64,000 nt of DNA from an uncultured Candidatus Saccharibacteria bacterium (GTDB lineage: Bacteria; Patescibacteriota; Minisyncoccia; Phycocordibacterales; UBA9973). This document shows, in pieces, positions 21,801-60,790 of this stretch. Location of the stretch: the NCBI GenBank assembly GCA_964596395.1, contig CAZQSY010000001.1, positions 108,091 through 172,090 on the forward strand. Direction: 5' to 3'. Both the position numbers and the translations under genes were made by a program. Positions within the stretch are counted from its first letter, which is position 1, and each line of letters opens with the position of its first letter. The notes beneath the pieces were generated by a model, which searched no databases, was not told the DNA's origin, and saw only the letters and a list, made by a program, of their open reading frames with translations.

Positions 21801-22384
21801 TCGTGCGAAGAAAGAGCCGTGCCGCAACGCGGGCACCAGGGCACCACTTTGTAGTCCTTGTATAAAAGTCCCCGTTCGTTTACTTTCTTTACGATGTTCC
21901 AAAGCGATTCAATGTAGTCATTGTGATAAGTAACGTACGGATTCTCCTGGTCAACCCAATAGCCAATACGCTCGGTAAACTTGTTCCAGAATTCCAGATA
22001 CTCCCAAACGCTTTCTTTGCATTGCTGATTAAATTTCGCGATGCCATACTCCTCGATTGCTTTTTTTGAATCAAGCCCGAGCTTTTTCTCAACCTGCAGT
22101 TCCACCGGCAAGCCGTGCGTGTCCCACCCGCCTTTTCGGCGCACATGGCATCCGCGCATGGTCTTGTACCGAGGGATGGCATCTTTGAAAGCGCGAGCTT
22201 CGAGGTGGTGAATACCCGGCTTGCCATTGGCTGTCGGCGGGCCTTCATAAAAAACGAACTCCTTTCTGCCCTCGGTTTGCTTTACCGATTTTTCAAAAAT
22301 TTTATTCTCTTTCCAAAATTCCAAAATCCGTTCTTCACGTATCGTCGCTTCACATTTTTCGATTTTTTTGCTTTCCTCGTTCAT
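18818..22384 (-). CDS. ileS: Isoleucyl-tRNA synthetase with two insertions (31-aa repeat-element-derived segment; about 190-aa histidine phosphatase domain)
   Basis: HIGH-type motif PTANGKPGIHHLEAR, WTTTPWTLPGN (CP1 start), KMSKSLGNIVDP; 1188 aa, oversized because of the insertions. Confidence 0.95.
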   Translation of the reverse strand: MNEESKKIEKCEATIREERILEFWKENKIFEKSVKQTEGRKEFVFYEGPPTANGKPGIHHLEARAFKDAIPRYKTMRGCHVRRKGGWDTHGLPVELQVEKKLGLDSKKAIEEYGIAKFNQQCKESVWEYLEFWNKFTERIGYWVDQENPYVTYHNDYIESLWNIVKKVNERGLLYKDYKVVPWCPRCGTALSSHELAQGYQDVKDLSVYVKFKIIASPRNDFLGPRVGRAESSAKNGLNQTLENHSAAPLYILAWTTTPWTLPGNVALAVGEDIDYVKIKKENEVLILAEKRLQEIQGEYQVLEKLKGKNLIGLEYEPLYPFLQNVISESEKPKLEKAYKVYPADFVTTEDGTGVVHTAVMYGQDDFELGTKIGLPKHHLVGLDGKFLSGTGFLEGRFTRDEETAVEIIKDLAHRGLLLKKEKYEHSYPYCWRCKTALIYYARDSWYIGMSKLRDELIKENEKINWEPAHIREGRFGEWLREIKDWAISRERYWGTPLPVWECEKCHKREVIGSLEELKEKTKKSGNKYFAIRHAQAEANLKGLISNKIESDNDHLTEEGKKQALDSARKLRKEDITLMISSDFLRTKETAEIILKELDLPQDKLVFDKRLREIFTGSFKGRTWREFWGDKTGEKRYFLDTDGSETQRDVKLRVSNFLYDIDKKYKNENILIVTHEGPRRLIVAGALGLNDEETIRELEASIPPVGFSEFTEFPFVPLPHNKDFELDFHRPYIDETEVVCECGGDLKRVKEVMDVWFDSGAMPFAQDHYPFESKKWVEGAGYPADYISEAIDQTRGWFYTLHAVGILMGRGKAYKNVICLGHLLDAQGKKMSKSLGNIVDPWEMIEKYGADTLRLWMYSVNQPGESKNFDEKTVRLLHQQVFGLLYNILAFYELYRDTSVEKNSQPKSGDVLDKWILARMDELTELVTRSLENYRLLEPVRGVRDFIEDLSTWYLRRSRDRMKEGDKEAKQTLYLVLKNLVKLLAPFAPFTAEDIWQKLKNEKEAESVHLAEWPKAGFKFFRFGDKEVLEKMKTVRKIVTLGLERRQYEKIKVRQPLAKIEIWKDSKLDGEYLDLVKDELNVKEVVEGTNIDENILLWTEITPELKAEGDFRELVRALQDMRKDMGLTPKDSITLYIETEKNGEELVKKFEPELLKTVLVSNLKLEKNDGQEVKAGDLAFKVKILQNK
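21642..21734. repeat. Nested inverted-repeat element, copy C, inserted in frame (93 nt) in ileS
   Basis: Perfect 16-bp outer IR gccgcggaatgatttt (21642-21657) / aaaatcattccgcggc (21719-21734); core gagtgtctggttgag ... ggccgacccgaggaccgagaaaat matches the copy-A termini; on the minus strand it encodes SPRNDFLGPRVGRAESSAKNGLNQTLENHSAA. Confidence 0.65.
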
Positions 22385-38849: not shown

Positions 38850-40595
38850 CTATTCGGTTTCCTTCCAGGAAGAAATGCTCCACCCGCCGGACGGACCGTT
38901 CACGAAATTCAAATCCGCCAGACCGGTCTCGTAAGTCACAACCGAATTGTTGTTAAGTTCTATCCATTTCCCGTTCAGCGCTTTGGCGGTGGCGTTGTTC
39001 TCGAGCTCCACTTCCCCATAGGCGGCGTATAGTATCACCGCGCCGCCGTTGTTGTGCAGTTCAATAGCCGAAGTAGAAGGCCAGGTGGAGAGAGCCATAA
39101 TGTAACTGCCGGGCACGCCGGAACCGCTAAAGGTTGTGTTGTTGTCTATCAGTATTTTGCCGTCGGCGATTATCAACCCCTCGGAAGAAGAGTAACTGGC
39201 GGAAAGATTTACGGTTGAATTATTTTTTATGGTTATGGTGCCTGTAACCCACAAAGTGCCCGTTATGGTTAAATGACCTCCGTTATCAACCAGCAAATTG
39301 CCAACCACTTTTTGCGGACCAAGAGACATAGACTCACCATTGGCGATGGTATAGTCGCCCGTGTGCGTCCCGCCCGCTTCGGCTTCGCTTTTCCAATCCA
39401 ATACGTTCTGGTCGGAAATCGGCATCGGCGTCTGCACCGGGTCGGCCAAACTGGTATCGCAGGATTTATTGTTGCCGGTTCCCGTTTGGCAATAATTTGT
39501 ACCGGCAATATTTGAATTATTCACCGTGTGCGCGTAAGCATTGCCTACGCCGCCGGAACCCACCGTTATGCCGTCGATTAACCCGGTCACGCCTCCCAAG
39601 TACAATCTGAAAAACCCATCCAGTCCCGACGGGGAAGTGTTGTTCCAAGTACCCGAATATTGCCCGACCTTGCCGAGCCCGCTCGGATAGCCATTACTGT
39701 TTCCACCTATTGTGTAATATTTTGAGGAATTCGTCGCTCCGTCAAGCACAAGCCAGTAAGTAACACCGGCCGTAAGTTCCGGATTAGAAGAAAAAGGCAA
39801 ACTCACCCAGTTGTAAGTGGCAGAAACCAATGAAGCGGACAAAGAGCGGGAGGTTATGGTAGTCGTACCGGGATTGCCCGACGCGTCATTTACAATACGA
39901 ACCGTCAAGTTCGAAGGAGTGCTGACCTTTTTCAAATACAGTTCAACTTTGTTGATTTGTCCCGTACTGCTCACCTGAAAACTTTGGGCAAAATCCTGGG
40001 AACCGCTTGCGTTCCCAAAAGTCACATCATAAGCGGGGGGCAGTATGTCGTTCGTCTGGTCGGCGGTGAGGGAAGCGGAATTGGCGGACGTGGCACTGCC
40101 GGTAATAGTGCCGGTGCCGGTGATGATACCGTTTGAATAAACGCTTCCGTTAATTACCGAATTGCTTCTCAAGTCGATGCCGCCGGTGCCCGATTGAACT
40201 CCGAAATTAAACGATGCCCCGGTGCCTGTGTTTAGCACCAGCTGAGTTGTCCTCTGCCTGTTCGACACGTCGCCGACAGCCGATACTGTTTTTTGGTTGT
40301 AGCCGGAATCAGCGATAGTGGCCGAACCCGAATTGCCGTTAAGCTCAATAATGTTTGTTCCTCCGATATCCTTTCCGGTCTTTAGGCGAAAATACGCGTC
40401 TTCCACCGCCGACTCGGCCAAGTACAAACTCTGGCTTGATTTAACCTGATTGTCCGCGCTTTTGAATCCGCGAACGGATGGCGAAACGAGACCGGAAGTA
40501 ACAGCCAAAGAAAGAAACAGGAAAAAAACCACTGACACGAGCATCGCCGCTCCGCCCTGCCTGTCTAAATTTTTAATTTCTTTAAGGTAGTACAT
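38850..40595 (-). CDS. Large pilus-associated protein (PilX/PilY1-like minor pilin or tip protein candidate)
   Basis: N-terminal hydrophobic pilin-like segment (GGAAMLVSVVFFLFLSLAV), then 550 aa of Gly/Ser/Thr/Asn-rich beta-type sequence; last gene of the pilus operon. Confidence 0.5.
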   Translation of the reverse strand: MYYLKEIKNLDRQGGAAMLVSVVFFLFLSLAVTSGLVSPSVRGFKSADNQVKSSQSLYLAESAVEDAYFRLKTGKDIGGTNIIELNGNSGSATIADSGYNQKTVSAVGDVSNRQRTTQLVLNTGTGASFNFGVQSGTGGIDLRSNSVINGSVYSNGIITGTGTITGSATSANSASLTADQTNDILPPAYDVTFGNASGSQDFAQSFQVSSTGQINKVELYLKKVSTPSNLTVRIVNDASGNPGTTTITSRSLSASLVSATYNWVSLPFSSNPELTAGVTYWLVLDGATNSSKYYTIGGNSNGYPSGLGKVGQYSGTWNNTSPSGLDGFFRLYLGGVTGLIDGITVGSGGVGNAYAHTVNNSNIAGTNYCQTGTGNNKSCDTSLADPVQTPMPISDQNVLDWKSEAEAGGTHTGDYTIANGESMSLGPQKVVGNLLVDNGGHLTITGTLWVTGTITIKNNSTVNLSASYSSSEGLIIADGKILIDNNTTFSGSGVPGSYIMALSTWPSTSAIELHNNGGAVILYAAYGEVELENNATAKALNGKWIELNNNSVVTYETGLADLNFVNGPSGGWSISSWKETE

Positions 40596-42107: not shown

Positions 42108-43325
42108 TCAGTTTATGTTATCCAGCACGGAATACAGGGGCGAAATCATGGATACGGCGAAAAAGCCGACAGCCCCGCCGATAATCACCATTAGCACCGG
42201 CTCGATAATCGTGGAAAGATTTTTGGTTTTGTTTTCTATCTCCGTTTCGTAAAAAGAAGCGATTTGCGAAAGCATTTCCGACAGCTTGCCGGTTTCTTCC
42301 CCGACTTGCGTCATTTCTTCCATCATTATCGGATAAAAATTCGTGTTTTCCTCGAACGCCTTCGAGAAAGGCGAACCCTTCTCTATGTATTCTTTCGCTT
42401 GCTCCAAAATTTTCTTGTAGTAAATATTTTGAACCACGTCTCCTGTTATTTCTATCGCCCGGGTAATAGACACGCCCGAAGACAAAAGCGAAGACATGGT
42501 GCGCGCCGTTCGCGCCGAATTGAGCTCCTTGGTCATGCTGCCGATAATCGGCAGCTTAATCAACGCGAAGTGCGTGTATTTCCGCATAAAGGGTGCCTTG
42601 AGGAGGTATACCGTTCCCGCCGCCGTGCCGATTATCAAAGTAAAAGAAATGAGCAGGTGCTCCGAGAAAAAGTTTCCGAGGGCGATAATAAATTTAGTGG
42701 AAGCAGGAAGGTCCACATTTAACTCCTTGAAGGTGGAGGCCAGCGTCGGCACCACAAAAGCAAACATCAGCACGCCAATCAGCACCATGGCCGAGAGAAT
42801 CACGCTCGGATAGATAAGCGCTCCCTTAACTTTCCTACTCAAAGAATACGCTTTTTCCAAATTCGCGCCCACTTCGGATAACGCGCCCGAGAGATTGCCC
42901 GATTCTTCGCCGGCCTTCGTCATGGAAACGAAAAGATTCGAAAAAACATTCGGAAATTTCGCGAAACCCGAAGAAAGCGTGCCGCCCGCGTCAATTTCTC
43001 CGGCCAGCGCGGTCAAAACATTCACGAAGCCGGGATTTTTCGTCTGCTTTTTCAAAACCGAAAGGGCTCTGGAAAGCGAAAGCCCGGCCTTGAGCATCCC
43101 GCTCAAATTTTTGGTGAAAATAATAAGTTCGCCAAGCCCCACCCTAGAAAGAAAGCGCGCGGTCAAGTTGGATAAATCGAACGGACTCGATTTTCCTTCT
43201 TTTATGGAAATCGGGAGGTCTCCCTTGTCGCGCAATTCGCGAGACAAGGTAAAACGGTCGGCCGCCTCCATCGTGCCTTCAAAAATTTGCCCGTTTTTCA
43301 ATTTTGCTTTGTAGGTAAAAAGCAT
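42108..43325 (-). CDS. pilC: Type IV pilus assembly platform protein PilC (GspF family)
   Basis: Two T2SS_F repeats, three TM segments, about 400 aa. Confidence 0.85.
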   Translation of the reverse strand: MLFTYKAKLKNGQIFEGTMEAADRFTLSRELRDKGDLPISIKEGKSSPFDLSNLTARFLSRVGLGELIIFTKNLSGMLKAGLSLSRALSVLKKQTKNPGFVNVLTALAGEIDAGGTLSSGFAKFPNVFSNLFVSMTKAGEESGNLSGALSEVGANLEKAYSLSRKVKGALIYPSVILSAMVLIGVLMFAFVVPTLASTFKELNVDLPASTKFIIALGNFFSEHLLISFTLIIGTAAGTVYLLKAPFMRKYTHFALIKLPIIGSMTKELNSARTARTMSSLLSSGVSITRAIEITGDVVQNIYYKKILEQAKEYIEKGSPFSKAFEENTNFYPIMMEEMTQVGEETGKLSEMLSQIASFYETEIENKTKNLSTIIEPVLMVIIGGAVGFFAVSMISPLYSVLDNIN

Positions 43326-43326
43326 A

Positions 43327-45078
43327 CTACTCTGAAACGACGCGAAAGACCTCCTCTAAAGAAGTATTGCCCAAAACCGCCTGGAAAACTCCGTCTTCGA
43401 GAATCGTCATCATGCCTTCGGTTTTCGCCTGCTTTTCTATTTCGTCCGAAGAAGCGCCACGCAAAACCATTTCTTTCACGGCCGGAGAAACCTTCAGGAC
43501 TTCGTGAATCCCCACGCGGCTCTGGTATCCGTCGGCCGACTCCTGACTCTTGGCCGGCTTGTAAAAAGGAACTTTGCTCCAGTCCTCCTTCGGCCCGACG
43601 AGCTTTTCGTTTTTTAGAAGCTCAAGCATCCGCTCTAAATTCACAACTTTCCCCAGATTTTTCAATTCATCCGCCGAGAGAAAATATTTTTCCCTGCTCG
43701 GCGTGAGCTTGCGCACCAGACGCTGGGCGATAATCGTCTTTACCGTTGAAACTATCAGAAACGGCAGAGCGCCCATGTCGATGAGACGGGGTATCGCTCC
43801 GGCCGCGGAATTGGTATGTATTGTAGAAAGCACCAGGTGGCCGGTCAGCGCGGCGTTTATCGCGAGACCGGCCGTCTCGCTGTCGCGGATTTCGCCCACC
43901 ATTATTATGTTCGGGTCTTGGCGCAGAAGCGAACGCAAGCCGCCCGCGAAAGTAAGCCCAATTTCGGGTTTTACCTGCACTTGGTTCACTCTGGGCATCT
44001 GATATTCTATCGGGTCTTCGACGGTGGAAATATTAACTTCCGGCCGGTTCAGCATCTCGAGCATGGTGTAAAGGGTAGTGGTCTTTCCGCTGCCGGTAGG
44101 GCCGGTGGCCAGCACCATGCCAATTTTTTGTTTCAGCGAATCGTGAATTCTCTCGAGCGCTTCCCCGTGAAAACCCAAGCCCTCCAGGGTAAAGCCGTGG
44201 GCGTTTTCTTTGAGTATTCTTATGACCGTTTTTTCTCCGTAAAAAATAGGCAGAGTAGAAACGCGAAAGGAAACTTTTTCTCCATTTTGCTCTATTTTGA
44301 ATCGTCCATCCTGCGGCAATCTTTTTTCGTCAAGCTTCAGGTTGGCCAGTACCTTGATGCGGGTGGTTATGCCGGGCGCCGCAGCTTTTTCCAAAACCAT
44401 GGCATCGTGCAGGATTCCATCTATCCTGTACCGCACAATCAAATCGCTCTCCCCGGGCTCTATGTGTATGTCCGAAGCGTTCTGAAGTATGGCGTGAAAA
44501 ATCAGAGAGTCCACGATTTTTACGACCGGCAAGTCCTCGGCCATGGCCTTGAGTTCCGCTTCCGTTTTTTCGGTATCCTTGGCGTCAACTTTCAGAGAAG
44601 CCGCTTCTTTTTTTATGATACTGTCAAAGTCGGCCTGCAAACTTTTTCGATACTGCACTAACGCTGATTTTATCGATAGAGAATCAGTCAGCCGGGGAAG
44701 AATTTTTTCTCCCGCCTTTTTCTTGATGAAATCAATCATCGGCAAATCGTCCACGTCGAGCATCGCCACCTCCAATCCCGATTTTGAATTTTGATAAGCG
44801 ATGATGTTGTGATTTCTGGCAATCGGTTCGGGAATCAAGGAGAGAACCGAAGAATCTATTTTTTTCTTGGTCAGGTCAACGAAGGGAATGCCCAGCACGA
44901 AGGCCTCCATGCGCTTCAAGTCGGTTTCGGACATTTTTTCTTCCGAAATCAAGAGGTCTCCCAGTTTTTGTTTTTTTGCCTCGGCTTTTTTCGCCAGCTC
45001 TTCCAAGTCGCTTTTCGCGATGACTCCCGATTGCAAGACCGCTTTCTTGAATTGCTCTTCGTTGATTTGCATTACCAA
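43327..45078 (-). CDS. pilB: Type IV pilus assembly ATPase PilB (GspE family)
   Basis: N-terminal GSPII_E_N domain, Walker A GPTGSGKTTTLY, Asp box, Walker B, His box. Confidence 0.9.
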   Translation of the reverse strand: MVMQINEEQFKKAVLQSGVIAKSDLEELAKKAEAKKQKLGDLLISEEKMSETDLKRMEAFVLGIPFVDLTKKKIDSSVLSLIPEPIARNHNIIAYQNSKSGLEVAMLDVDDLPMIDFIKKKAGEKILPRLTDSLSIKSALVQYRKSLQADFDSIIKKEAASLKVDAKDTEKTEAELKAMAEDLPVVKIVDSLIFHAILQNASDIHIEPGESDLIVRYRIDGILHDAMVLEKAAAPGITTRIKVLANLKLDEKRLPQDGRFKIEQNGEKVSFRVSTLPIFYGEKTVIRILKENAHGFTLEGLGFHGEALERIHDSLKQKIGMVLATGPTGSGKTTTLYTMLEMLNRPEVNISTVEDPIEYQMPRVNQVQVKPEIGLTFAGGLRSLLRQDPNIIMVGEIRDSETAGLAINAALTGHLVLSTIHTNSAAGAIPRLIDMGALPFLIVSTVKTIIAQRLVRKLTPSREKYFLSADELKNLGKVVNLERMLELLKNEKLVGPKEDWSKVPFYKPAKSQESADGYQSRVGIHEVLKVSPAVKEMVLRGASSDEIEKQAKTEGMMTILEDGVFQAVLGNTSLEEVFRVVSE

Positions 45079-45090
45079 TCATTTTATAAC

Positions 45091-45165
45091 AGAAAACTAA
45101 AAAAGCATATCTCTAGAAATTCGTACCCTAGAAAAGATATGCTTTTTAGTTTTCTGTTGAGTTAG
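45091..45165 (-). other. Long near-perfect hairpin (about 28-bp arms) between the giant surface protein gene and pilB
   Basis: aacagaaaactaaaaaagcatatctctag ... ctagaaaagatatgctttttagttttctgtt; arms complementary except for a 1-nt indel and 2 mismatches; loop aaattcgtacc. Confidence 0.55.
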
Positions 45166-48100
45166 TTTTCTATAAACACCGGTTTCTTGCCGCCGGTAGA
45201 TACGTACACCCACAATTCGTCGGGGGCCTGGCCGCCTGGGCCGGTGCAGGTGATTGAATATTTCGTGCTGCGCGAAGGCCCCGGGCTGACTAAAACACTT
45301 CCCTCAGTATCGCCGCCGGTCGTAATCGCGCCACCTTCGTAAATAATATTAGAGCAAGACGTGGTGTTGGTAGATGTCCATTCCAGAGTAAACGGCTCGC
45401 CAGAAGATATCGGGTTCTTTGAATCCGCCGAAAGCGAAAGGTTAGCGTTCGGAGAAGCCACTGTATCTGTGCAGATGCTCCCGTTCCAGAAAGTTGCAGA
45501 CGCGCAGTCAGCGAAAGCGGTAGCGCGAGCGAGCTCAATCCCGTCATTGTACAAGAAAAAAGTCCTCGGGCTTGAATCGTATGGAACCGGCAAACCTACG
45601 TTGTTCCCGAAATTTCCGGCCATAACAGTAGTTTTTGCTTCTGGATAGTTTGAGGTTATTGCCGAGTCCCCTGCCGGGTTTATGGTGGTCCAATCAAAGT
45701 GAACATCACAGCTACTGTTGCCCGAAAGTATCTCGCAAGGGCTGTCTAGGGGGGTCAAACTTCCAGTCGGAGCTTCGCCGCAAGCCGGCGCCTGGCAGGA
45801 TTGCGTGGGACTTCCTACACAATCAGCCCCGCCGTTGGCTGGAGCAGGGTTGGTGCATGTGCGTGTCTGCACGCCGGACTCTCCGCACATTGTCGCGCTA
45901 CAGGCGCCCCACTGCGACCATCCGCCGTCCACCGGGTCGCTGGTCACGGTCACATCCACCCATGCGCCGCAGTTATTGTTTTCGTTCGACTCGGTCACGA
46001 CGCCGGTAAAGGTCGGGTCATTGTCGGCGCAGGCGCGAACCGAATATGTGCCTGGAGCGATAAAGGTGTACGAGGGAGAGAAAGTTGTGTTATTTCCTCC
46101 GGCGGAAAGCGCTGGCATCAGGGTTGCGTTCAGCGATTCTATCGTGCCGAAACCGCCGGTACTTGAAGCCACCTGGAAAAAGTTCGGGAACGAAGTCGGG
46201 GTCGCGGCAGTGCCGGAGTTTGAGATGGTAGCCGAGAAAGTTACAGCTTCATTCGCGTTGACTTCTGTCGGCGAAGAACTGGAAGCAGTCAGTTCGGGTA
46301 AGGACGCGCCCGGGGTGGCAAAAGTGGCATCCGGAGAGTAGCCGGTGAGTCCCGCCGAGTTCGTGGCGTAACCTCGGTAGTAGTATACTGTTCCACCCGA
46401 CAAGCCGGTCCTTACGTGGGAATAGGCGACATTTACAGAAATACCGCCTTCGGCGCTGCAGTTTGAAGAAGGATTCGGCGCTGTTCCGAGACACGTGCCG
46501 CGGGCGGTGATAGTCGCCGGGATTCCGGCTGAAGTTACAGTCGCTCCGAGTGTCGCCTTATAGGTAGAACCGTCGAGAGAGATGTCCGACGAAGTGGGGC
46601 TCGCGACGGTCGGCGGGGTATTCCCCGAAGCGGCGAAGGTCGCGCTGAATGTCTGGTTTGAAGTTATGTTTGTGAAGGTGTAAGAAGTCGCGCTGGTAGT
46701 AGTCGGAGTACCGTTTACTATGTGCGAGGCAACTACATATCCGTTGCTTGGAGTGAGAGTAAGAGTAGTTGAATTCGTACCGTAAATCACCGAAGTGGTC
46801 CCCGCCGGAGAGATAGTTCCGTTTAACGCCTGAGTAACGGCGATAGTCGGTTTTGCTCTGCACTGCCCGCTTACCCAATCGCTGCCGGAAGCACACGTCG
46901 CAGTGGCGCTGCTTTGGTCGAGCAACACACCGTTGTTGTACAGATAAAATGTTTTTGTCCCGTCAGATATTTGATAATTAAGGGGCGATGTGTTGTTTCT
47001 AGAATCCGCCACCACTATTTGTGGCGGAGTAGTCACTTGAGAATAACTTGCAGGATTGTTTACGCTCCAGGAAATACTCGAGTTACAGGCGCTGGAACCT
47101 ATCGGAATAGTACAATCGGTAGAGGAGACATTGCCCGACATTTGCCCGGCTATCGCCGAGAAAGAAGCAGTAACCGTACAAGCCGAAGTTACCGGACCCG
47201 TGGTGTAAATACTTCCCGCAAGTGAGCCGCCGCAGCCGGTAACAGTATTTATCTCATAACCGCTGTTCGGAGAAATGGTGAAAGAACCAGTGGAATTGTA
47301 GTTCACATTCCTGGAAGACGGGGTGATGGTCCCGCCGACCCCTCCACTAACTGAAGTGCCGACCGTGTATGAATTTAGAGAGAACGAAGCAGATACGTTG
47401 CACCCCGAAGTAATCGCACCAGTCGTATAAGTCGTACCCGAAAGCGAGCCGTTGCAACCGGAAGCGGAAGCGGTGTAACCGGCAGTCGGGGTAACAGTAA
47501 ATGTTGTGGTAAGGCCATGATTCACTGTCCTAGTTGAAGGAGTAATTGAACCGCCGGCCCCACTACCACTTGAGGTTACCGTGTACGAATTTTGCGAGAA
47601 AGTCGCGCTAACTGTACAGTTCGCGGTAATAGAGTTTGTCGTGTAAATATTTCCGGCAAGAGATCCGCCGCAGGTGCCGCCGACCGAAGCGGTGTAGCCG
47701 GTATTCGGAGTAACGGTGAAGGAAGTGTTGTCGCCCGATGCTACGGTTTGAGCAGTATTTGGAGATATGGAACCACCAGCGCCGGCGCTGGGAGTAACTG
47801 TATAGGTATTAGAAGCCACGGTAATATTCTTCCAGGGACCGCAGTTGTTGCTCTCGTTTGATTCAGTGATGGTGCCAGCGTTTGACGAACTGGTCTTGTC
47901 AGCACAAACGCGGATGGAATACGTGCCAGCCGGGCTGAAAGTAATTGATGGGGAGGTAGCCGTATCCATTCCCCCGGCGGTAACCGCAGGCATGGTACCG
48001 CTTGGCGTTCTGTCGGCGGGTGTCCCGCACCCGCCTCCCGTATTGCATGTCTGGAAAAAATAACTGAACGAAGCGCCGGTCGAAGCATTGCCACCGTTGG

Positions 48101-51100
48101 AAATAACAGCGGTGTAAGTCCTGGCGACACCGGTGGTGGCGGCTGAAGGGCTCGCAAGGCCAGCAGTCAAGTCGGGTAAGGGTTTGTCTTCGGAACAAGA
48201 GGCGCTGCTCCCGCCGTTTGAACCCGCGCAGGTCCATGTCCAGGCGGTTGCTCCGTTCACGTTGCTGGTACTGGTACCCGAAGAACAATTGTAGTGAGCG
48301 GGGGCGCAGGAGCCATTGACCGGAGACACGACGGATGAGAATGAAGCTGTTACGGTACAGTTTGAATTTATTGAACCGGTCGTATAAGTGTAGTTCGGAG
48401 CAGTACCCGAAAGCGAGCCGCTGCAGCCAGAGGCGGAAGCGGTGTAGCCGGAGTTTGAAGTCACGGTGAAGGTAGTGGTAGTACCCGCGTTAACCACTAC
48501 CGAACTCGGGGTTATATTCCCATTCGGAGAACCGTTATCTGTGGCTGTCACGGTATAAGTCACAGCAGTTGTCCCACAAACACTTCCGTTCCAAGTGGTA
48601 CCAGCAGAACAAGAAGTCGTGGCCGTAGCAGAATCCAACTCTTGCCCGTTGTTGTATAGATAGAAAGTTCTTGAGCCGTAGTGTACCGAATATGTCGCCG
48701 AACCAGAGTTTCCCGAGCCCACAGTTATATTTGTCGGAGTGGTTACCGCCGAAGTTGAAACCGGATTGGTCGTACTCCAGCTTATGCTTGAACTACAACT
48801 ACTTTGTCCGGATGGAATCGTGCAATTCGAAGCGCTGATTGTTCCAGACATACCGCCGGCCGAAGCCGCAAACGTTGCCGTCACGCTTTTAGCCGAGTTC
48901 ATGGTGAAACTGCAAGTTCCGGTGCCGGTACACGCGCCCGACCAGCCAGAGAATGTATAACCGGAAGAAGGAGCAGCGGTGAGAGAGACGCTAGTACCGC
49001 TGCTTACGTTTGCAGAACAAGTAGTGCCACAATTTATGCCGTTGCCGGTTACGGTGCCGCTGCCGGATTTAGTTACAGAAAGAATGTATGTTGTCGGACT
49101 AAACGTCGCCGTCACGCTTTTGTTTGCGTTCATAGTGAAACTGCAAGTTCCGGTGCCGGTGCAGGCACCCGACCAGCCAGAGAATGTATAACCAGAAGAA
49201 GGAGTAGCGGCGAGAGAAACGTTTGCTCCAGTTATGATATTAACCGTACAGGGGTAAGAACTGCAACCAGACAGAATGTTGCCAGCAGAACCAGACGCGG
49301 TACCGCTCAGAGTGCCGCTGCCGCTTTTGTTTACCGTAAGCGCGCTAGTTTGAACTGAATTGAAAGTAAACGTCACCGTGCAGTTTGTGGTTATGGCGTT
49401 CGTCGTGTAAGTGGTACCGTTTAATGTTCCCCCACAAGTGCCGCCGACCGAAGCGGTGTAGCCCGAGTTGGGGATAACATTAAAGGAAATAATCCCGCCG
49501 TGCGAAACATAATAATTATCCCCCGAAGAAGACCAAGTAGAAGTCTGTTGAGATACACTCCCATTCGCGCCAGCGGTAACCGTAACACTATGGAAAAAGA
49601 AAGCTATAAGCGAGCAATTTTGGGTGATGGGCTCGGTTGTGTAAATAACTGAACCGCTCCCCAGAACTTCGACCTGGCTACCACACCCTGAAACCGCACC
49701 TAGATAGCCGGAATTCGCCGTTACGGTGAAAGTAGTAGTCTGACCGGATTGCACAGTTCTGAATGAGGGAGTGATAGACCCACCGGAACCATCTACCGAG
49801 GCAGACACAGTATAGCTAGGTGTTGTTTGGCTAAACGTAGCTGAAACGGTACAATTCGCGGTTATCACATTTGTAGTGTAAGTAGTGCCACTTAAAGTTC
49901 CCCCGCAAGTACCACCCACCGAAGATATATATCCAGAATTCGGTGACACGGTGAAAGACATGGTATACCCGTAGGTTATTGATTGGGAAGTGCTCGGAGA
50001 AATTGAACCGCCGGAGCCAGCGCTCGGCGTCACCGTCAAGACCGCTTTGTTGAATGTCGCAGTAACACTCTTGTTTGAATTCATAACGAAACTGCATACA
50101 GAACTCGCTCCAGTGCAAGCGCCCGACCAGCCCGAGAAAGTAGAACCAGTTGAGGGTGTGGCAACCAAATCAATGAGATCATTTGGATAAAAACTCGCGG
50201 AACATGTGGTCCCACAGCTGATACCGCTCGGAGAAGAGGTAATTGTTCCTGAACCAGTACCAGCTTTACTTACGGTCAGAGTGTACGGGGCTAAGCTGAA
50301 CGTCGCCGTCACGCTTTTGTTTGAATTCATGGTGAAATTGCAGGTTCCTGTGCCAGTGCAGGCGCCCGACCAATTCGAGAATACATAGCCCGCAGACGGG
50401 CTCGCGGTGAGGGACACACTCGCACCGCTTGAAACATTAACTGTGCATGGGTATGAAGAGCAGCCGGAGAGAATGTTGCCGGCAGTGCCGGAGGCAGTGC
50501 CGGATATAGTGCCACTGCCGGTCTTGCTGACAGTGAGAGCGTAGTTCTGATAAGAAGTTGTAAAAGAAACATCAGAACCATAGCTTGTGCCCGCTCCGTT
50601 TGTGGCATACGCGCGCACATGATACGTAGTACCCTGAGAAAGACCGGTGATATAACTTATCCATGGACTGCTCGCGCTACTTGTTCCATCGGCAGTTTTG
50701 CCTAGATAAGAAGAAACCGTAGGATTTGAAGAAAGCCCCCACACTATTCCGCTTGCTGAAATGGGTGAGCCATTCACGGATGTGATTTGTCCCCCACTCT
50801 GTGCGGAAGTTGGAGATATGTTTGAAACGTTGCTGGTCGTAACTGTCGGCGCCTCGGCCGGGGTCACAAATGAGGAAGTGGAAGAGTACCCCGTGAGATA
50901 GGCCGAGTTGGTGGCATATCCCTTGAAATAATAAGTTGTGCCCGGATTTAGATTTGTCAAAGAAAGAGAAAAAGGGTTAGTGGAAGAACCAGACAAGCAG
51001 GTGTTTAAACTAGAAGAAGAAGTTCCGTAACAAAAACCTCTGCTGTTTATAGTAGAAGGACTACCGAAATTTGATATGGTGTCAGACAAAGTTACACTTC

Positions 51101-52007
51101 GCGAAGCCAGATTGGAATAAGAAGGGTTGGCGAGTGTGGGAGCGGTGTTGTTCTGCGCGTAGCTTATGCTCACCGTGCAGTTGCCGGTAACCGCACCTGT
51201 GGTATATGTATAGGAAGAACTTTGCGATGAAGTAGGGCTCCCGCTGCATCCCGAAGCCGAAGCGGTATAGCCTGATGCCGGAGCTATGACGAAAGAAGTG
51301 TTAGAACCATGCGTAACATTTTTAGAAACAGAGTTTGAGGTGGAACCGTCTATTGTGCCGTTTGCAGAGTTGTCTGTTGCCGTAACAACGTAAGAGTTCA
51401 GGGCAAACGTCGCCGTCACGCTTTTGGCCGAGTTCATGGTGAAACTGCATGTTCCGGTGCCGGTGCAAGCGCCCGACCAACCAGAGAATGTCGACCCGAA
51501 ACTCGGAGAAGCACTAAGGGTAACGCTGGTACCGCTAGAATAACTTGCGCTGCAGGTGGCCCCGCAGGAGATTCCCGCCGGAGTCGAAGTAATCGTACCT
51601 GCGCCCGTGCCTGCTTTGCCCACCGTTAAAGCATAGCTTGATGCCACAGTTACGGTCACCGACTTAGAGACATCGTACATTTCACCCTGAGCATTTACAC
51701 AATAAAGGGTGTAAGTAGCGGTGGACGAAGGAGAAACACTCTGACTTCCGATGATATGTGTTGTCGCGTCGGGGTAAATGATGCCGGAGAAGCCGCTGCC
51801 TCCGGTGCTGCTTTTATAACACTCCACGGCATCATAAACAATCCAACTTAAAGTGGAAGAGCCGCCGGGCTGTATAGTAGTCGGGGAAGCGGTAAAATCT
51901 ATGCTCGTCGCCGGTCCGACAGCTGAAACAATGTTTTGTTTTAAAGCCGCAAAAAACAAAAACGCGGCTAGAACCGAAGCGAGGGTGAGAAAAATTTTCT
52001 TGAACAT
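45162..52007 (-). CDS. Giant secreted surface protein (2281 aa): InlB-B-repeat (GW-SGAC-TG-C-FTMN-N-SVTATF) modules, Ig-like repeats, one thrombospondin type-1-like module
   Basis: Signal peptide MFKKIFLTLASVLAAFLFFAAL; at least 8 copies of the G(Y/S)(T/V)FSGWSGACTG(T/A)GTCxFTMNSNKSVTATF motif; DGGWSQWGACSATMCGESGVQTRTCTNPAPANGGADC at about 45775-45930; Ser/Thr/Gly-rich; first gene of the pilB-pilC-pilin operon; extended -10 TGTATAAT on the minus strand at about 52077-52090. Confidence 0.85.
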   Translation of the reverse strand: MFKKIFLTLASVLAAFLFFAALKQNIVSAVGPATSIDFTASPTTIQPGGSSTLSWIVYDAVECYKSSTGGSGFSGIIYPDATTHIIGSQSVSPSSTATYTLYCVNAQGEMYDVSKSVTVTVASSYALTVGKAGTGAGTITSTPAGISCGATCSASYSSGTSVTLSASPSFGSTFSGWSGACTGTGTCSFTMNSAKSVTATFALNSYVVTATDNSANGTIDGSTSNSVSKNVTHGSNTSFVIAPASGYTASASGCSGSPTSSQSSSYTYTTGAVTGNCTVSISYAQNNTAPTLANPSYSNLASRSVTLSDTISNFGSPSTINSRGFCYGTSSSSLNTCLSGSSTNPFSLSLTNLNPGTTYYFKGYATNSAYLTGYSSTSSFVTPAEAPTVTTSNVSNISPTSAQSGGQITSVNGSPISASGIVWGLSSNPTVSSYLGKTADGTSSASSPWISYITGLSQGTTYHVRAYATNGAGTSYGSDVSFTTSYQNYALTVSKTGSGTISGTASGTAGNILSGCSSYPCTVNVSSGASVSLTASPSAGYVFSNWSGACTGTGTCNFTMNSNKSVTATFSLAPYTLTVSKAGTGSGTITSSPSGISCGTTCSASFYPNDLIDLVATPSTGSTFSGWSGACTGASSVCSFVMNSNKSVTATFNKAVLTVTPSAGSGGSISPSTSQSITYGYTMSFTVSPNSGYISSVGGTCGGTLSGTTYTTNVITANCTVSATFSQTTPSYTVSASVDGSGGSITPSFRTVQSGQTTTFTVTANSGYLGAVSGCGSQVEVLGSGSVIYTTEPITQNCSLIAFFFHSVTVTAGANGSVSQQTSTWSSSGDNYYVSHGGIISFNVIPNSGYTASVGGTCGGTLNGTTYTTNAITTNCTVTFTFNSVQTSALTVNKSGSGTLSGTASGSAGNILSGCSSYPCTVNIITGANVSLAATPSSGYTFSGWSGACTGTGTCSFTMNANKSVTATFSPTTYILSVTKSGSGTVTGNGINCGTTCSANVSSGTSVSLTAAPSSGYTFSGWSGACTGTGTCSFTMNSAKSVTATFAASAGGMSGTISASNCTIPSGQSSCSSSISWSTTNPVSTSAVTTPTNITVGSGNSGSATYSVHYGSRTFYLYNNGQELDSATATTSCSAGTTWNGSVCGTTAVTYTVTATDNGSPNGNITPSSVVVNAGTTTTFTVTSNSGYTASASGCSGSLSGTAPNYTYTTGSINSNCTVTASFSSVVSPVNGSCAPAHYNCSSGTSTSNVNGATAWTWTCAGSNGGSSASCSEDKPLPDLTAGLASPSAATTGVARTYTAVISNGGNASTGASFSYFFQTCNTGGGCGTPADRTPSGTMPAVTAGGMDTATSPSITFSPAGTYSIRVCADKTSSSNAGTITESNESNNCGPWKNITVASNTYTVTPSAGAGGSISPNTAQTVASGDNTSFTVTPNTGYTASVGGTCGGSLAGNIYTTNSITANCTVSATFSQNSYTVTSSGSGAGGSITPSTRTVNHGLTTTFTVTPTAGYTASASGCNGSLSGTTYTTGAITSGCNVSASFSLNSYTVGTSVSGGVGGTITPSSRNVNYNSTGSFTISPNSGYEINTVTGCGGSLAGSIYTTGPVTSACTVTASFSAIAGQMSGNVSSTDCTIPIGSSACNSSISWSVNNPASYSQVTTPPQIVVADSRNNTSPLNYQISDGTKTFYLYNNGVLLDQSSATATCASGSDWVSGQCRAKPTIAVTQALNGTISPAGTTSVIYGTNSTTLTLTPSNGYVVASHIVNGTPTTTSATSYTFTNITSNQTFSATFAASGNTPPTVASPTSSDISLDGSTYKATLGATVTSAGIPATITARGTCLGTAPNPSSNCSAEGGISVNVAYSHVRTGLSGGTVYYYRGYATNSAGLTGYSPDATFATPGASLPELTASSSSPTEVNANEAVTFSATISNSGTAATPTSFPNFFQVASSTGGFGTIESLNATLMPALSAGGNNTTFSPSYTFIAPGTYSVRACADNDPTFTGVVTESNENNNCGAWVDVTVTSDPVDGGWSQWGACSATMCGESGVQTRTCTNPAPANGGADCVGSPTQSCQAPACGEAPTGSLTPLDSPCEILSGNSSCDVHFDWTTINPAGDSAITSNYPEAKTTVMAGNFGNNVGLPVPYDSSPRTFFLYNDGIELARATAFADCASATFWNGSICTDTVASPNANLSLSADSKNPISSGEPFTLEWTSTNTTSCSNIIYEGGAITTGGDTEGSVLVSPGPSRSTKYSITCTGPGGQAPDELWVYVSTGGKKPVFIEN

Positions 52008-55580: not shown

Positions 55581-56384
55581 ATGAAAAAATATTTAGGTTT
55601 GTTTTTGGGAGGCGCGCTTCTTCTAACTGGAGCCGTAGCCCTAGCAGAATCAGAAAACTCCGGCTCTGGTTCGCTTAATGCAGGTATGGGGCTCCGCCTC
55701 GGCGTGCCGGTCGAGGTGAAAGCGCGGCAGGACGCCATTAAAGCCAAAATTGAAGAGATGCGGCAGGAGCGCCAAGAAATGATGGCCGAGCTTGGCGAAA
55801 AAAGAGAAGAGAACAAGAAAGAGCTTTTGGAAATGCGGGAAGAAGTGAAAGCCGAACGCGAAGCTATAAAAGCTGAACTCGAAACAGATCGCGAAGCGGT
55901 AAAGGCAAAGTTCGAGGCCCTGAAGGAAAAGGTAAAGACTGAAAGAGACGCGGCCAAAGCGAAAATTTTAGAGGTGCGGCTCTCTGGCCGCGAGAAGGCC
56001 CTGCAGATTTTTGATTTGGTGGTAGAAAAACTCGGCGCTTTGAAAGACAGAGTAAATGCGCATATAGAAAAACTTGATGCGAAAGGAGTCGATGTTTCAG
56101 CCGCCGAGGAATTCGTGGCCGTCGCAGAAGTGAAGCTGGATGAAGCAAAGGTGAAAATAACCGAAGTGAACACACTCTTGGCCGATTCAGAGGAAGAACT
56201 ATCGGTCGAAGAGAAAACAAAACTCAGAACATTGCGTACCGAAGCGCAGACGCTCGTGCGCGAAGCGCATCAGGCGCTGAAGGATGCGATTAAATCACTA
56301 CGCGAGAGCGTACGGGTAAAGATAGAAGCCCAGGCAAAAGTTGAGGCCGAAAACGAGACAGAAACCGAAAGCGAAAGCGAATAG
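55581..56384 (+). CDS. Secreted Lys/Glu-rich coiled-coil protein
   Basis: Signal peptide MKKYLGLFLGGALLLTGAVALA, then heptad-like KE-rich sequence ending ETETESESE; the antisense ORF 55556..56173 is a codon-mirror artefact. Confidence 0.55.
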   Translation: MKKYLGLFLGGALLLTGAVALAESENSGSGSLNAGMGLRLGVPVEVKARQDAIKAKIEEMRQERQEMMAELGEKREENKKELLEMREEVKAEREAIKAELETDREAVKAKFEALKEKVKTERDAAKAKILEVRLSGREKALQIFDLVVEKLGALKDRVNAHIEKLDAKGVDVSAAEEFVAVAEVKLDEAKVKITEVNTLLADSEEELSVEEKTKLRTLRTEAQTLVREAHQALKDAIKSLRESVRVKIEAQAKVEAENETETESESE

Positions 56385-56936: not shown

Positions 56937-58049
56937 ATGTTAAAAACCAATATCAAAAAACTGCCCGGAAGCGAAGTTGAAATAGAGGGAGAACTGGAAG
57001 CGGATGTTTTTGAAAAATATTTTTCGGTAGCGGTGAAAAAAATCGGCGAGAATCTGGAAATTGACGGATTCCGCAAAGGCAAGGTTCCCGAGAGCGTCTT
57101 GCTTTCGAAAGTTCCCGAATCGCGAATATTAAACGAAATGGCTGAGCTCGCGCTTTCCGAGTATTACCCGAAAATCCTAGAGGAAAACAAAATAGACGCC
57201 ATTGGCCGGCCCGAAATAACCATCACCAAGCTCGCCCGCAAAAATCCGCTCGGCTTCAAAATAAAAACCGCGGCGCTTCCCGAAGTGAAGCTTCCCGATT
57301 ACAAAGAAATAGCCAAAAAAATAATTGCGGGTATTACCGACGCGGAGAAAAATTTTGAAGCGACGGAGAAAGAAATAGAAGACACCATCTTGGATATCCG
57401 CAAATCGCGCGCGCCAAAAATTCACATGGCGGATGCGGTAAAGAGCGACGGAGAAAAGACGGAAGCAACGCTTCCTTCTGAAGACAAAATTTCTGCCGAG
57501 AAGGGTGAAAACAAGCCGGCTGAACCCGAGCTCCCCGAATTGAGCGACGACTTCGTGCGCTCGCTGGGGCCCTTCAAAGATATCGCCGACTTCAGAGACA
57601 GATTGAAAGAGAACATCAAACTCGAAAAACAAAACAATCTAAAAGAAAAGACCCGTCTGAAAATCGTGGAAAAAATCATAGAAGAAATGCGGGTAGACCT
57701 GCCCGGCGTTTTAGTTCATGCCGAACTAGACAAAATCCTGTACCGCATGGAATCCGACATCACCGCGATGGGAATGAATTTTGAAGATTATCTGAAGCAC
57801 ATCAAAAAAACACCCGAAGACCTGCGCAAAGAATTTCGCCCTGACGCCGAGAAAAAGGCAAAGCTCGAGCTCGCCATACACGGCATCGCCGAAGCGGAAA
57901 ATATTTCCGCCGACCCCGAACGGGTGGCTCAAGAAGTGTCGGCAATTTTGGAACATTATAAAGACGCCGACCCCGAACGCGCCCGCATGCACGCTGAGAA
58001 CGTGCTGACGAACGAAAAGGTGTTTGAGTTTTTGGAGGGACAAGGATAA
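56937..58049 (+). CDS. tig: Trigger factor lacking the FKBP-type PPIase domain
   Basis: N-terminal ribosome-binding signature [12 protein letters not shown]; C-terminal chaperone arm present; the middle PPIase domain is replaced by a low-complexity acidic linker. Confidence 0.8.
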
Positions 58050-58096: not shown

Positions 58097-58696
58097 ATGT
58101 TAATACCAACTGTTATTGAAAAAAGTCAGTTCGGCGAGAGGGCCTATGATATTTACTCGCGGCTCTTGAGGGAGCGGATTGTCTTTTTGGCCGGGCCGAT
58201 AGACGACAATGTGGCAAATATAGTAATCGCCCAACTTCTTTTTCTAGAATCCGAAGACCAGAAGAAAGATATCTCGCTTTACATCAATTCCCCCGGCGGG
58301 TCGGTTTCGGCCACGCTCGCCATAGTTGATACCATGTCTCATATCAGACCCGATGTTTCCACTTTCTGCGTAGGCCTAGCCGCTTCCGGCGCGGCGCTCA
58401 TTCTTTCGGCCGGAAAGAAGGGTAAGCGTTTCATTCTGCCAAACGCCGAGGTAATGATTCATCAGCCCTTGGGCGGCGTGGAAGGCCAGGCGACGGACAT
58501 CGCGATTACCGCCAAGCATATTTTAAAAACGAAAGACAGCTTGAACAAAATTCTGGCGAAAAATACCGGCAAACCCCTCACACAAATCGAAAAAGACGTG
58601 GAGCGCGATTTCTTCATGGATGCCGAAGAAGCAAAAAAATACGGCATTATCGATGAGATAGTAGTGAAATCCAAAACGCCGGAGAAAAAAGAGTAG
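58097..58696 (+). CDS. clpP: ATP-dependent Clp protease proteolytic subunit
   Basis: Ser-His-Asp triad context ([19 protein letters not shown]), about 200 aa; conserved tig-clpP order. Confidence 0.9.
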
Positions 58697-58698
58697 GT

Positions 58699-60594
58699 CT
58701 ATAAAATTTTCATCACCCCTCCCTGATTTCCCGCCAAGACGTACTCGGCCACTTTGTTTTCCACGATTTCCTCCATTGCCCTTTTTATCGGCCTCGCGCC
58801 GAATTCAGGGTCGAACCCCGCCCCGGCGACTTTGTCTACGAGCGCATCGGTAATTTCCAATTTTATTTTTTTATCTTCAAATAAGCGTCCAGCAAAATCA
58901 TCCAGCATCAAAATTGTTATCTTTCTCGCCTCGGCGCTATCGAGCGGTTGAAAGAGAATGATATCGTTGAATCTGTTCATAAATTCAGGAGAAAATATTT
59001 GTTCGGAAATTAAATGATTAACCAGTTCTTTTTTGCCGATACCCGGGTTCCTGACAATTTCGGCGCTGCCGGCGTTGGAAGTGGCAATAATAAGCGACTC
59101 TCTGAAACTTGCCTCACGTCCCGAACTTCTGGTAAGCCGGCCCTCATCGAGCACCTGCAAAAGCAAGTGGTGTATCGCGGTGTGTGCCTTTTCCAACTCG
59201 TCGAAAAACACCAGCGACAAGGGAGATTCTTCGATTTCCGCGCACAACCTCTCGGTAAAGACCTCTACCGAAGAAGGCATAGAAAATTCGCTCATATCAA
59301 AGCGGAGCATCGCGTTCTTCCGGCCGAAATAGATTTCGGCCAGAATTTTCGCTGTGTGTGTCTTGCCCACCCCGGTTGGCCCGAGAAAAAGAAAACTCCC
59401 CGCCGGCTTGCTCGGGTCACTTATGCCGGTGCGAAGACGCTTGAGCGCCGCAGATACTTCTCTCACTGCTTCATCCTGGCCGATTATTTTTTTCTTCATG
59501 TTTTCCTCTAAACCCGCCAGCGCCTGCCTCTCGCCAGCGCCCAAGTCGCCGACCGGAATATTCGTCTTGTCCGAAATAATCCGTCGCGCGTCTTCGACAG
59601 TTATTTTTTTATCGAGCGTCTGCAGTTCTTCGAGAATAGACAGCGATTTTTCCGGCTCCCGTTCGTTGCCGATTAGCCGCCCCGCGAGCCGTATGATTTC
59701 CGTTACCGCTTCATCCTCTATCCTTATGCCTTTTGCTCGCGCGTTTTCTTTCAAAATGGCCGCAGTGTCGGCCTCGTTCGTTTCGGCCAAATCGACTTTC
59801 TCGAATTTAGAAAGAAACTCCGGATATTTTTTCAGAACCTGGTCGTAGTTCGCGAAATCGGTAGTGACGATAATACCCAGCCGCGGGGTCGAAAGATAAG
59901 GCATAAGCCGCTCGTACAGACCTTCGTACAGATGAATGTTTTCTATTACGGCAATCACGTTCCCGGCTGAAGCGGTTTCTTTGAGGCACGCATCAAAGTC
60001 GGGTATTGAAATACCTTCCACAAAAAGCTCTACCACTCTGTGGTTCCGAATGCCGGCGAAAGAAAGCCCCGAGCGGCCTAGCCGGCCGAGGTGCGAAAGC
60101 AGGGCCGATTTGCCGACGCCGGTGTCCCCCACCACAAGCACGTTGCGCGTTCCATCTTTCGAAAGTCCGCGCTCTATCATTCTAAGCGCGCGCTCCTTGC
60201 CGTAGATTTTCTGCGAACGAGCCGACACGAGGTCGCGACTGTGTTTGCGCAAAACATACGTGTCCATGTATGAAAGCGAGGCGCCGACGCTTCCCAAACC
60301 CTGCAGACCTTCACGGTTTATGTTAACAGGAAAAATCAAAAAAAACGGGAGCGAGATAATGACAACAAGAGTAAAGCCGAGGCCTAAAATTATCAGAAAA
60401 CTGCGAGCGATGAAACCCAAAAGCCGCGAGAGTACAAAAAAAGCGAATTTTTCGACAAACGTATAGCTCTCCCTTGTGATAGTATCCATTTTCCACGGAC
60501 GAAAGAGGGTTTTAAAAAGAAGCGGAGTGGAAAAGGCGTGAAAAGCGTAGTTCACCAAGTTCCTCCAAGACACAAGCCCTTTATGCATGGGCAT
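58699..60594 (-). CDS. Membrane-anchored Clp/Hsp100-family double AAA+ ATPase (ClpA/B-like D1+D2, N-domain replaced by TM segments)
   Basis: Two TM helices in the first 90 aa; D1 Walker A VVGDTGVGKSAL; D2 QDEAVREVSAALKRLRTGISDPSKPAGSFLFLGPTGVGKTHTA, LRFDMSEF, LVFFDELEKAH, LQVLDEGRLT closely matching ClpA/ClpB D2. Confidence 0.65.
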   Translation of the reverse strand: MPMHKGLVSWRNLVNYAFHAFSTPLLFKTLFRPWKMDTITRESYTFVEKFAFFVLSRLLGFIARSFLIILGLGFTLVVIISLPFFLIFPVNINREGLQGLGSVGASLSYMDTYVLRKHSRDLVSARSQKIYGKERALRMIERGLSKDGTRNVLVVGDTGVGKSALLSHLGRLGRSGLSFAGIRNHRVVELFVEGISIPDFDACLKETASAGNVIAVIENIHLYEGLYERLMPYLSTPRLGIIVTTDFANYDQVLKKYPEFLSKFEKVDLAETNEADTAAILKENARAKGIRIEDEAVTEIIRLAGRLIGNEREPEKSLSILEELQTLDKKITVEDARRIISDKTNIPVGDLGAGERQALAGLEENMKKKIIGQDEAVREVSAALKRLRTGISDPSKPAGSFLFLGPTGVGKTHTAKILAEIYFGRKNAMLRFDMSEFSMPSSVEVFTERLCAEIEESPLSLVFFDELEKAHTAIHHLLLQVLDEGRLTRSSGREASFRESLIIATSNAGSAEIVRNPGIGKKELVNHLISEQIFSPEFMNRFNDIILFQPLDSAEARKITILMLDDFAGRLFEDKKIKLEITDALVDKVAGAGFDPEFGARPIKRAMEEIVENKVAEYVLAGNQGGVMKIL

Positions 60595-60790
60595 ATTCTA
60601 CCATAAGATTGACTTAAGCGCGGCATGCTGTTATATTGTAACAGTCAAATTTTTACAAATTATTTTGAAATTGGTTTATAGGAATATCCATATTTTATGT
60701 TGTCGCAAAGAAAAATTTTTCTAGAAACAGTATTACTGGAAGAGTAATACCCCAACATAGTGGCTGTTTTTATAAGCCGGGAAAAGGCTT

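Follow-up and report, generated by a model that had tools for sequence, protein, structure and literature searches.

A 64,000-nucleotide stretch of DNA from an uncultured Candidatus Saccharibacteria bacterium (contig CAZQSY010000001.1; hereafter the window) encodes a membrane-fused, Clp/Hsp100-like ATPase, whose longest open reading frame (ORF) lies at 58699..60594 on the minus strand (631 amino acids, stop codon 58699-58701). The best explanation of this protein, which we consider somewhat probable, is a lineage-specific, membrane-embedded Hsp100 derivative in which a partner protein and a motor have been fused and which acts as a non-threading remodeller. Our confidence is high for the identity and evolutionary history of the protein, and evenly divided for the mode of action proposed below. 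Residues are numbered from the first ATG of the ORF.

By its sequence and modelled fold, the protein is a two-ring class-1 Clp/Hsp100 derivative with a membrane anchor. In the second ring (D2), Pfam placed AAA_2 at residues 396-545 (E 3e-36) and ClpB_D2-small at residues 551-623; the first ring (D1) gave weak generic P-loop matches only. A Torsin match was weak and under the Pfam cut-off (E 0.0037), and Peptidase_M41 was absent from the protein by Pfam. NCBIfam scores were far below the equivalog cut-offs for ClpB (310 versus 1232), ClpA (275 versus 993) and ClpV (210 versus 885). An AlphaFold2 (AF2) model built from 37 homologues (predicted local distance difference test score 83.9) matched the ClpC, ClpB and ClpA protomers with template-modelling scores of ~0.7 in Foldseek. 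The canonical Clp alignment starts at the N-domain/D1 linker, at about residues 106-125; residues 1-125 were without a match in either Pfam or NCBIfam, and Clp_N was not detected by Pfam on residues 1-128 even at E<=1. Together with a single 45-residue hydrophobic block near the N-terminus, these results bear out an original prediction, made from the letters alone, of a membrane-anchored double-AAA+ Clp derivative with a membrane module of ~90 amino acids in place of the usual N-domain. The ORF and all the motifs quoted in that prediction are present: GSFLFLGPTGVGKTHTA (residues 399-415), LRFDMSEF, LVFFDELEKAH, LQVLDEGRLT and, in D1, VVGDTGVGKSAL.

A database search scored more than 7,800 matches, the best 120 of which show 64-70% identity, form more than 100 clusters, come from Paceibacteria, Nomurabacteria and Minisyncoccia metagenome-assembled genomes and carry the names 'AAA family ATPase' or 'Clp protease ATP-binding subunit'. 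Searching with residues 1-330 recovered more distant members with the full architecture (26-38% identity, 600-656 amino acids), and most of the distant members have 810-890 amino acids and likewise begin with transmembrane segments. A scan of one genome per species for the D1 Walker B pattern found 145 relatives, from which 80 loci were kept. Nearly all of them are labelled Patescibacteria (Nomura-, Campbell-, Nealson-, Azam-, Portnoy-, Moran- and Terrybacteria, or generic names), and two of the 80 carry labels from outside this group, possibly through mis-binning. The 80 loci represent 80 different assemblies, none with two loci, and the ATPase appears to be single-copy. One orthologue (locus L021, CAZUCZ010000004.1) is truncated to 468 amino acids, and its tblastn match stops at query residue 451; a frameshift, a pseudogene or an assembly error may account for this. 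The ATPase family is specific to the Parcubacteria/Paceibacteria lineage of Patescibacteria and is present in databases under generic or misleading names only. Full-text literature searches found no account of a membrane Clp/Hsp100 in Patescibacteria or candidate phyla radiation bacteria, and what is new here is the architecture and the partner of this Hsp100 derivative.

Sequence comparisons identify the N-terminus that replaces the Clp N-domain as a fused partner protein, which takes the matter beyond the view of the original prediction. ORF clustering across all loci detected an ORF of 124-156 amino acids directly upstream of, and on the same strand as, the long-form ATPase, and these small upstream ORFs grouped with the N-termini of the fused ATPases. 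The gap between small ORF and ATPase is mostly -4 to +9 nt, with frequent overlap. The stand-alone partner is a membrane protein, typically of 125-135 amino acids, with no Pfam domain and annotated as 'hypothetical'; a Foldseek search of the PDB with its AF2 model returned no match under E 8.9. A hidden Markov model (HMM) made from the stand-alone proteins alone matched the window protein at residues 8-88 (E 1.1e-13), every one of the remaining short forms with E values of 1e-15 to 1e-24 and the long fused forms with values of 1e-17 to 1e-39. Tallied by this HMM, 43 loci are fused and 39 split, and six of the seven loci without a match are contig-edge fragments; among the complete loci examined, L069 is the only one with the partner neither fused nor adjacent. 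Alignment of the window N-terminus with 42 stand-alone proteins by hhalign gave a probability of 98.5% (E 1.5e-15, 39% identity over 69 columns). When an independent check was run in reverse, from the small proteins P0459 and P0432, the gene that follows (after 8 nt and 2 nt) encoded an ATPase of 844 and 853 amino acids, respectively, composed of AAA_lid_9, AAA_2 and ClpB_D2-small. Among the 120 matches listed for an N-module profile search there were solely stand-alone proteins of 123-173 amino acids, the named ones all from Patescibacteria.

These comparisons mark the window protein as a natural (Rosetta-stone) fusion of partner and motor, with the partner joined straight to D1. The split arrangement is that of most other Parcubacteria, and its long-form orthologue (810-890 amino acids) has a transmembrane hairpin of its own and a Clp_N domain. 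The additional residues of these long forms lie solely between the membrane segment and D1, and a profile of this region matched the N-domains of Hsp104, Hsp101 and ClpC (profile versus PDB, E 3.7e-6 to 1e-3); a weak precomputed Pfam match to Clp_N exists in one long-form orthologue. Pfam alone did not detect Clp_N on the long-form N-regions, for which the profile-versus-PDB search was needed. Because of the long-form architecture and these Clp_N profile matches, the ancestral form would have consisted of a transmembrane hairpin, Clp_N, a dead D1 and an active D2; in the window clade, the ATPase's own hairpin and Clp_N have been lost. On one reading, Clp_N may have served mainly to hold the partner and have become dispensable after covalent linkage. 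The family signature is defined with the N-module either fused to, or encoded directly upstream of, the ATPase, and the window protein contains all of its elements: FSxPLLxKTLFSPW(K/R) in the N-module, SRxxGxxxR in the helix, a transmembrane segment and a D1 Walker B of the form (D/E)N.

The N-module (residues 3-45; 60460..60588, minus strand) bears the motif SWxNLVxYAFxAFSxPLLxKTLFxPWK and is homologous to the N-terminal part of the stand-alone protein. The membrane segment that follows (residues 46-94; 60313..60459, minus strand) was delimited by hydropathy, conservation and charge bias, and hydropathy shows one hydrophobic block of 45 residues (50-94) with K/R flanks on both sides. The membrane helix bears a conserved stripe, N53-R57-G60-R64, which is followed by the invariant residues G71, P83 and P89. 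Across fused and stand-alone forms, F21, R57 and P89 are invariant and S22, P33, W34, N53, G60 and R64 nearly so. In the stand-alone proteins the N-module is strongly basic (K+R 9.5 versus D+E 3.1, n=184). Because of this charge and the positive-inside rule the N-module is predicted to be cytoplasmic, and since the ATPase must be cytoplasmic as well, an even number of spans is needed. We conclude that there are probably two spans, ~47-70 (containing R57 and R64) and ~72-90, with a turn at G71.

The anatomy of the two rings was read from HMMER/phmmer alignments to the PDB structures of Thermus thermophilus ClpB and Staphylococcus aureus ClpC. The linker and D1 together (residues 95-326; 59617..60312, minus strand) form a degenerate AAA+ ring. 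Its Walker A, GDTGVGKS (residues 156-163; 60106..60129, minus strand), is kept in the close clade and is present as the original prediction had stated; the catalytic Glu and the arginine fingers are missing. The degenerate Walker B, IAVIEN (residues 214-219; 59938..59955, minus strand), has Asn for the catalytic Glu (IENIH versus IDELH in ClpB) in every family member examined, and SKF takes the place of RRF at the arginine fingers. The KYRG pore loop of D1 is not present in the ClpB/ClpC alignments or the family-wide comparison. Judged by these residues, D1 is catalytically dead and ATP hydrolysis there is not possible. D1 also passes into D2 without an M-domain: the match to D1 stops at about residue 326, that to D2 begins at about 322-328, and no insertion exists relative to the family. 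In many distant members the Walker A Lys of D1 is changed to Arg or another residue, and nucleotide binding by D1 may be lost in part of the family. D1 Walker A reads GNAGIGIK in P0090, a close homologue (64% identity), and GxGR(R/K) in many long forms in L032-L088.

D2 (residues 327-631; 58702..59616, minus strand), made up of AAA_2 and ClpB_D2-small, has a complete catalytic set. Walker A (GPTGVGKT, residues 405-412; 59359..59382, minus strand) and, in the ClpB/ClpC alignments, Walker B (LVFFDE, residues 461-466; 59197..59214, minus strand) are intact, as are sensor-1 (N507), the Arg finger (R493) and sensor-2 (GAR, R601). The description of D2 as nearly canonical nevertheless fails at the GYVG pore loop, where ~15 residues matching ClpB VGAPPGYVGYEEGG are deleted. 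The site of the deletion, located by ClpB/ClpC alignments and family comparison, is at residues 437-449 (FSMPSSVEVFTER; 59248..59286, minus strand). In long forms this loop reads RLIGS-x(5-9)-G-LT and is hypervariable, of changing length and without an aromatic residue; in short forms it is deleted. The motif degeneracies (D1 Walker B (D/E)N, altered D1 arginine fingers and no aromatic pore loops) are common to all 80 loci, and residues of the transmembrane module and of D2 are invariant among homologues.

In the position of the ClpA IGL and ClpC VGF loops, D2 has the surface loop VRNPGIGKKE (residues 514-523; 59026..59055, minus strand), which is shorter than that of ClpC or ClpA and has the family consensus IANPxIDKKT (core NPxI(D/E)KK). 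It contains no hydrophobic-Gly-hydrophobic (IGL/IGF/VGF) ClpP-docking tripeptide, in agreement with the original reading. Conserved tripeptides of this kind occur only in the membrane segment (residues 59-61 and 70-72) and in a D1 strand (residues 239-241).

The start of the ATPase is most likely the second ATG (60588; M3 in ORF numbering), which gives a probable true coding sequence at 58699..60588 on the minus strand and a protein of 629 amino acids. We place it there because homologues are exactly 629 amino acids long in 91 of the 120 best matches, because the family consensus N-terminus, MH(P/S)GIxSW, aligns at M3 and because the promoter spacing is conserved. An extended -10 element read from the sequence, TGGTAGAAT (60595..60603, minus strand), ends 6 nt 5' of the second ATG, and the pattern TGnTA(G/A)AAT-N6-ATG is kept in 19 of 19 close loci (the window and 18 relatives, among L001-L030). 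A consensus promoter scan overlooked this promoter because it has a -10 box only and no -35 box. The arrangement predicts a leaderless mRNA starting at the second ATG, conserved in the close loci. With such a promoter directly before the ATG there is therefore no upstream space for a hidden N-domain, and re-examination of the start recovered no standard one. The exact match at NCBI (P0001, 618 amino acids) is annotated with a start 13 codons past the first ATG.

The convergent neighbour of the ATPase is, as had been noted, clpP (58097..58696, plus strand; Pfam CLP_protease, E 3e-82). Their stop codons are separated by 2 nt, with no intervening terminator, and because the genes converge in this way they would not be co-transcribed. 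Upstream of clpP lie tig and hppA, and the ATPase is flanked on its other side by rny, hup and lexA; the order lexA-hup-rny-AAA-clpP-tig-hppA is kept in ~15 of 22 loci of at least 60% identity. Among the ~58 distant loci none has clpP within 6 kb, and it is also absent from further loci examined individually. We considered the adjacency of clpP as the mark of a functional pair and rejected it, the synteny being limited to the closest clade. Neither ftsH, whose absence had been remarked on earlier, nor clpX was found in the window, a result confined to these 64 kb and silent on the rest of the genome; no FtsH-type HE[AGSC]GH motif occurs anywhere in the window.

Other neighbours recur around the relatives of the ATPase. 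The division and cell wall (dcw) genes mraZ-rsmH-ftsL-ftsI lie directly downstream of the small-protein and ATPase cassette, on the same strand, in 17 of 47 long-form loci (L032-L085) and in L090. MltG/YceG recurs upstream in eight long-form loci, and two small ORFs, c9 (~114 amino acids, membrane) and c16 (~127 amino acids), also recur upstream in sub-clades only. Neighbourhood clustering found no universally conserved third partner; dcw, Hsp20, MltG, c9 and c16 are all limited to sub-clades. The dcw adjacency of split loci suggests a role in envelope or division homeostasis, and we treat the dcw, Hsp20 and MltG contexts as clade-limited hints, not functional proof.

Most likely, the protein is a membrane remodeller driven by D2 through its partner module, and not an FtsH-like or ClpP-feeding unfoldase. 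For its mode of action we offer a proposal that we think about equally likely to be right or wrong. D1 would act as a nucleotide-binding assembly ring and D2 as the sole motor of the hexamer. Because the gripping loops and the ClpP interface are absent, the hexamer would not thread polypeptides into ClpP; ATP hydrolysis by D2 would do conformational work on, or through, the membrane partner module, as a non-threading remodeller, similar to Torsin, on the cytoplasmic side of the membrane. Several observations weigh against this explanation. Loss of the aromatic pore loops counts against canonical threading and is no proof of a substrate-free channel, and D2 otherwise reads as a fully competent Hsp100 motor. 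The clpP adjacency is retained in ~15 close genomes, and an Hsp20 gene lies nearby upstream in seven split loci, which would fit a proteostasis role. Fusion and gene adjacency are the two grounds on which a physical interaction between small protein and ATPase is proposed. Finally, the two transmembrane helices of the original prediction are favoured by charge bias and the positive-inside rule, whereas AF2, with confidently modelled helices, draws the membrane part as one long helix, at 46-80 in the full protein and also in the stand-alone partner.

A threading machine that works without ClpP, a disaggregase or extractor like ClpB or Msp1 with non-canonical pore residues and with the fused partner as its membrane adaptor, is an unlikely alternative that would make good use of the intact D2 catalysis, Arg finger and sensors. 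The Hsp20 gene, two genes upstream in those seven split loci, and the Clp_N retained by long forms, which is the usual adaptor or substrate-binding domain, also point towards it. A D2 loop that is variable in long forms and deleted in short ones is, however, not selected for gripping; moreover, the M-domain for DnaK coupling is absent and D1 is dead. Still less likely, in our estimate, is the role put forward originally, that of a membrane-tethered unfoldase standing in for FtsH in the quality control of damaged membrane proteins and possibly delivering them to the neighbouring ClpP. A membrane anchor on a two-ring Hsp100 fold with an active D2, the adjacency of clpP in the window and ~15 close relatives, and a clpX that is not behind clpP in the usual tig-clpP-clpX position would all suit such a protein. 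What speaks against it is the lack of an Ar-phi-Gly pore loop in both rings, one of which is dead, and of IGL, IGF or VGF at the docking position; the functional link to ClpP is undercut by the convergence of the genes and by the absence of clpP within 6 kb in every one of the ~58 distant loci.

A more specific proposal, slightly more doubtful again, is a hitherto unrecognised, Parcubacteria-specific kind of AAA+ membrane device that is no protein unfoldase, in which an Hsp100 ring without pore loops and driven by D2 only would move the Arg-bearing transmembrane helices of the partner (N53-R57-G60-R64) to handle an anionic or lipid-linked envelope component, or to assemble or disassemble a division or envelope complex. 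It would fit the frequent place of the cassette directly upstream of mraZ-rsmH-ftsL-ftsI and near mltG. That the protein is a decaying, non-functional remnant of ClpB or ClpC is very improbable. The loss of the D1 Walker B, the Arg fingers, both pore loops and the N-domain could be taken for decay, but the ORF is intact, the length of 629 amino acids recurs in 91 of the 120 closest homologues and these span more than 100 clusters at 64-70% identity. Residues of the transmembrane module and D2 are invariant, the promoter is conserved and the 80 loci come from 80 assemblies, all of which argues against a remnant.

Elsewhere in the window we observed several further features. The trigger factor (56937..58049, plus strand; 370 amino acids) has Trigger_N and Trigger_C, and an FKBP-type peptidyl-prolyl isomerase domain was not detected in it. 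An E/K-rich protein of 267 amino acids (55581..56384, plus strand) has an N-terminal hydrophobic, signal-like segment and no Pfam match, and a related ORF recurs in eight loci (cluster c15). A 581-amino-acid ORF at 38850..40595 (minus strand) likewise lacks a Pfam match. An isoleucyl-tRNA synthetase-like ORF of 1188 amino acids (18818..22384, minus strand) contains a histidine phosphatase domain (His_Phos_1) at residues 531-693; it is inserted into the class I catalytic domain, which is unusual in an aminoacyl-tRNA synthetase. An ORF of 2281 amino acids (45162..52007, minus strand), with five InlB B-repeat (Flg_new_2) domains and a CARDB domain, adjoins the type IV pilus genes pilB and pilC (42108..45078) and is probably a surface or adhesion protein.

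Polypeptide threading by aromatic pore loops has its textbook example in the Clp/Hsp100 proteins. To our knowledge, the sole well-known relative without such loops is the eukaryotic Torsin, the mechanism of which is unsettled. If our reading is confirmed, there is a bacterial lineage with an integral-membrane Hsp100 that is driven by one ring and has an obligate small membrane partner, and this would offer a tractable bacterial model for non-threading Hsp100-type mechanics. It would also link by function a pair of 'hypothetical' genes in organisms whose lineage-specific genes are mostly unannotated. The ClpA/ClpC 'Clp protease ATP-binding subunit' labels in public databases would then need correction, as the motifs do not support them.

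Of the known systems, ClpC, ClpB and ClpA share with the window protein the two-ring AAA+ fold and an AAA_2-type D2 with ClpB_D2-small, and with the long orthologues also Clp_N. They differ in that the window protein is an integral-membrane protein, its D1 is dead and the KYRG and GYVG loops are absent. Unlike ClpB and ClpC it has no M-domain, unlike ClpA and ClpC it has no IGL/VGF loop for ClpP, and the N-domain of all three is replaced in the window form by the fused membrane partner. FtsH resembles it in that a membrane anchor at the N-terminus precedes a cytoplasmic AAA+ domain, but the window protein has neither the single classical AAA ring of FtsH, nor its aromatic pore loop, nor its C-terminal M41 zinc peptidase. 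Msp1/ATAD1 and Bcs1 are likewise single polypeptides with an N-terminal transmembrane anchor and an AAA motor at the membrane surface; they belong to the classical AAA clade rather than to Hsp100 and have no fused partner module. Msp1 threads its substrates by means of aromatic pore loops. In NSF D2 and Pex1/Pex6 D1, a ring binds nucleotide without hydrolysing it and serves assembly. The D1 of the window protein, with its Walker A and without catalytic Glu or Arg fingers, resembles these rings, although NSF and Pex1/Pex6 are from another AAA+ clade and their active ring keeps its pore loops.

The closest functional parallel is with Torsins. These relatives of Hsp100 within the AAA+ proteins are without aromatic pore loops, associate with the membrane via an N-terminal hydrophobic segment and depend for their function on membrane-protein partners (PMC5425593). 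The window protein shares the loss of pore loops and the membrane association, and would be like them in having a membrane partner. Torsin with LAP1/LULL1 is nonetheless a single-ring, luminal (endoplasmic reticulum/nuclear envelope) and eukaryotic system in which the Arg finger is supplied by the cofactor, whereas the window protein has two rings, its own D2 Arg finger (R493) and an ATPase that is necessarily cytoplasmic. The Torsin cofactor, moreover, has a degenerate AAA+ fold, while the partner here is a small helical membrane protein. The relation to Torsins is one of analogy, not membership.

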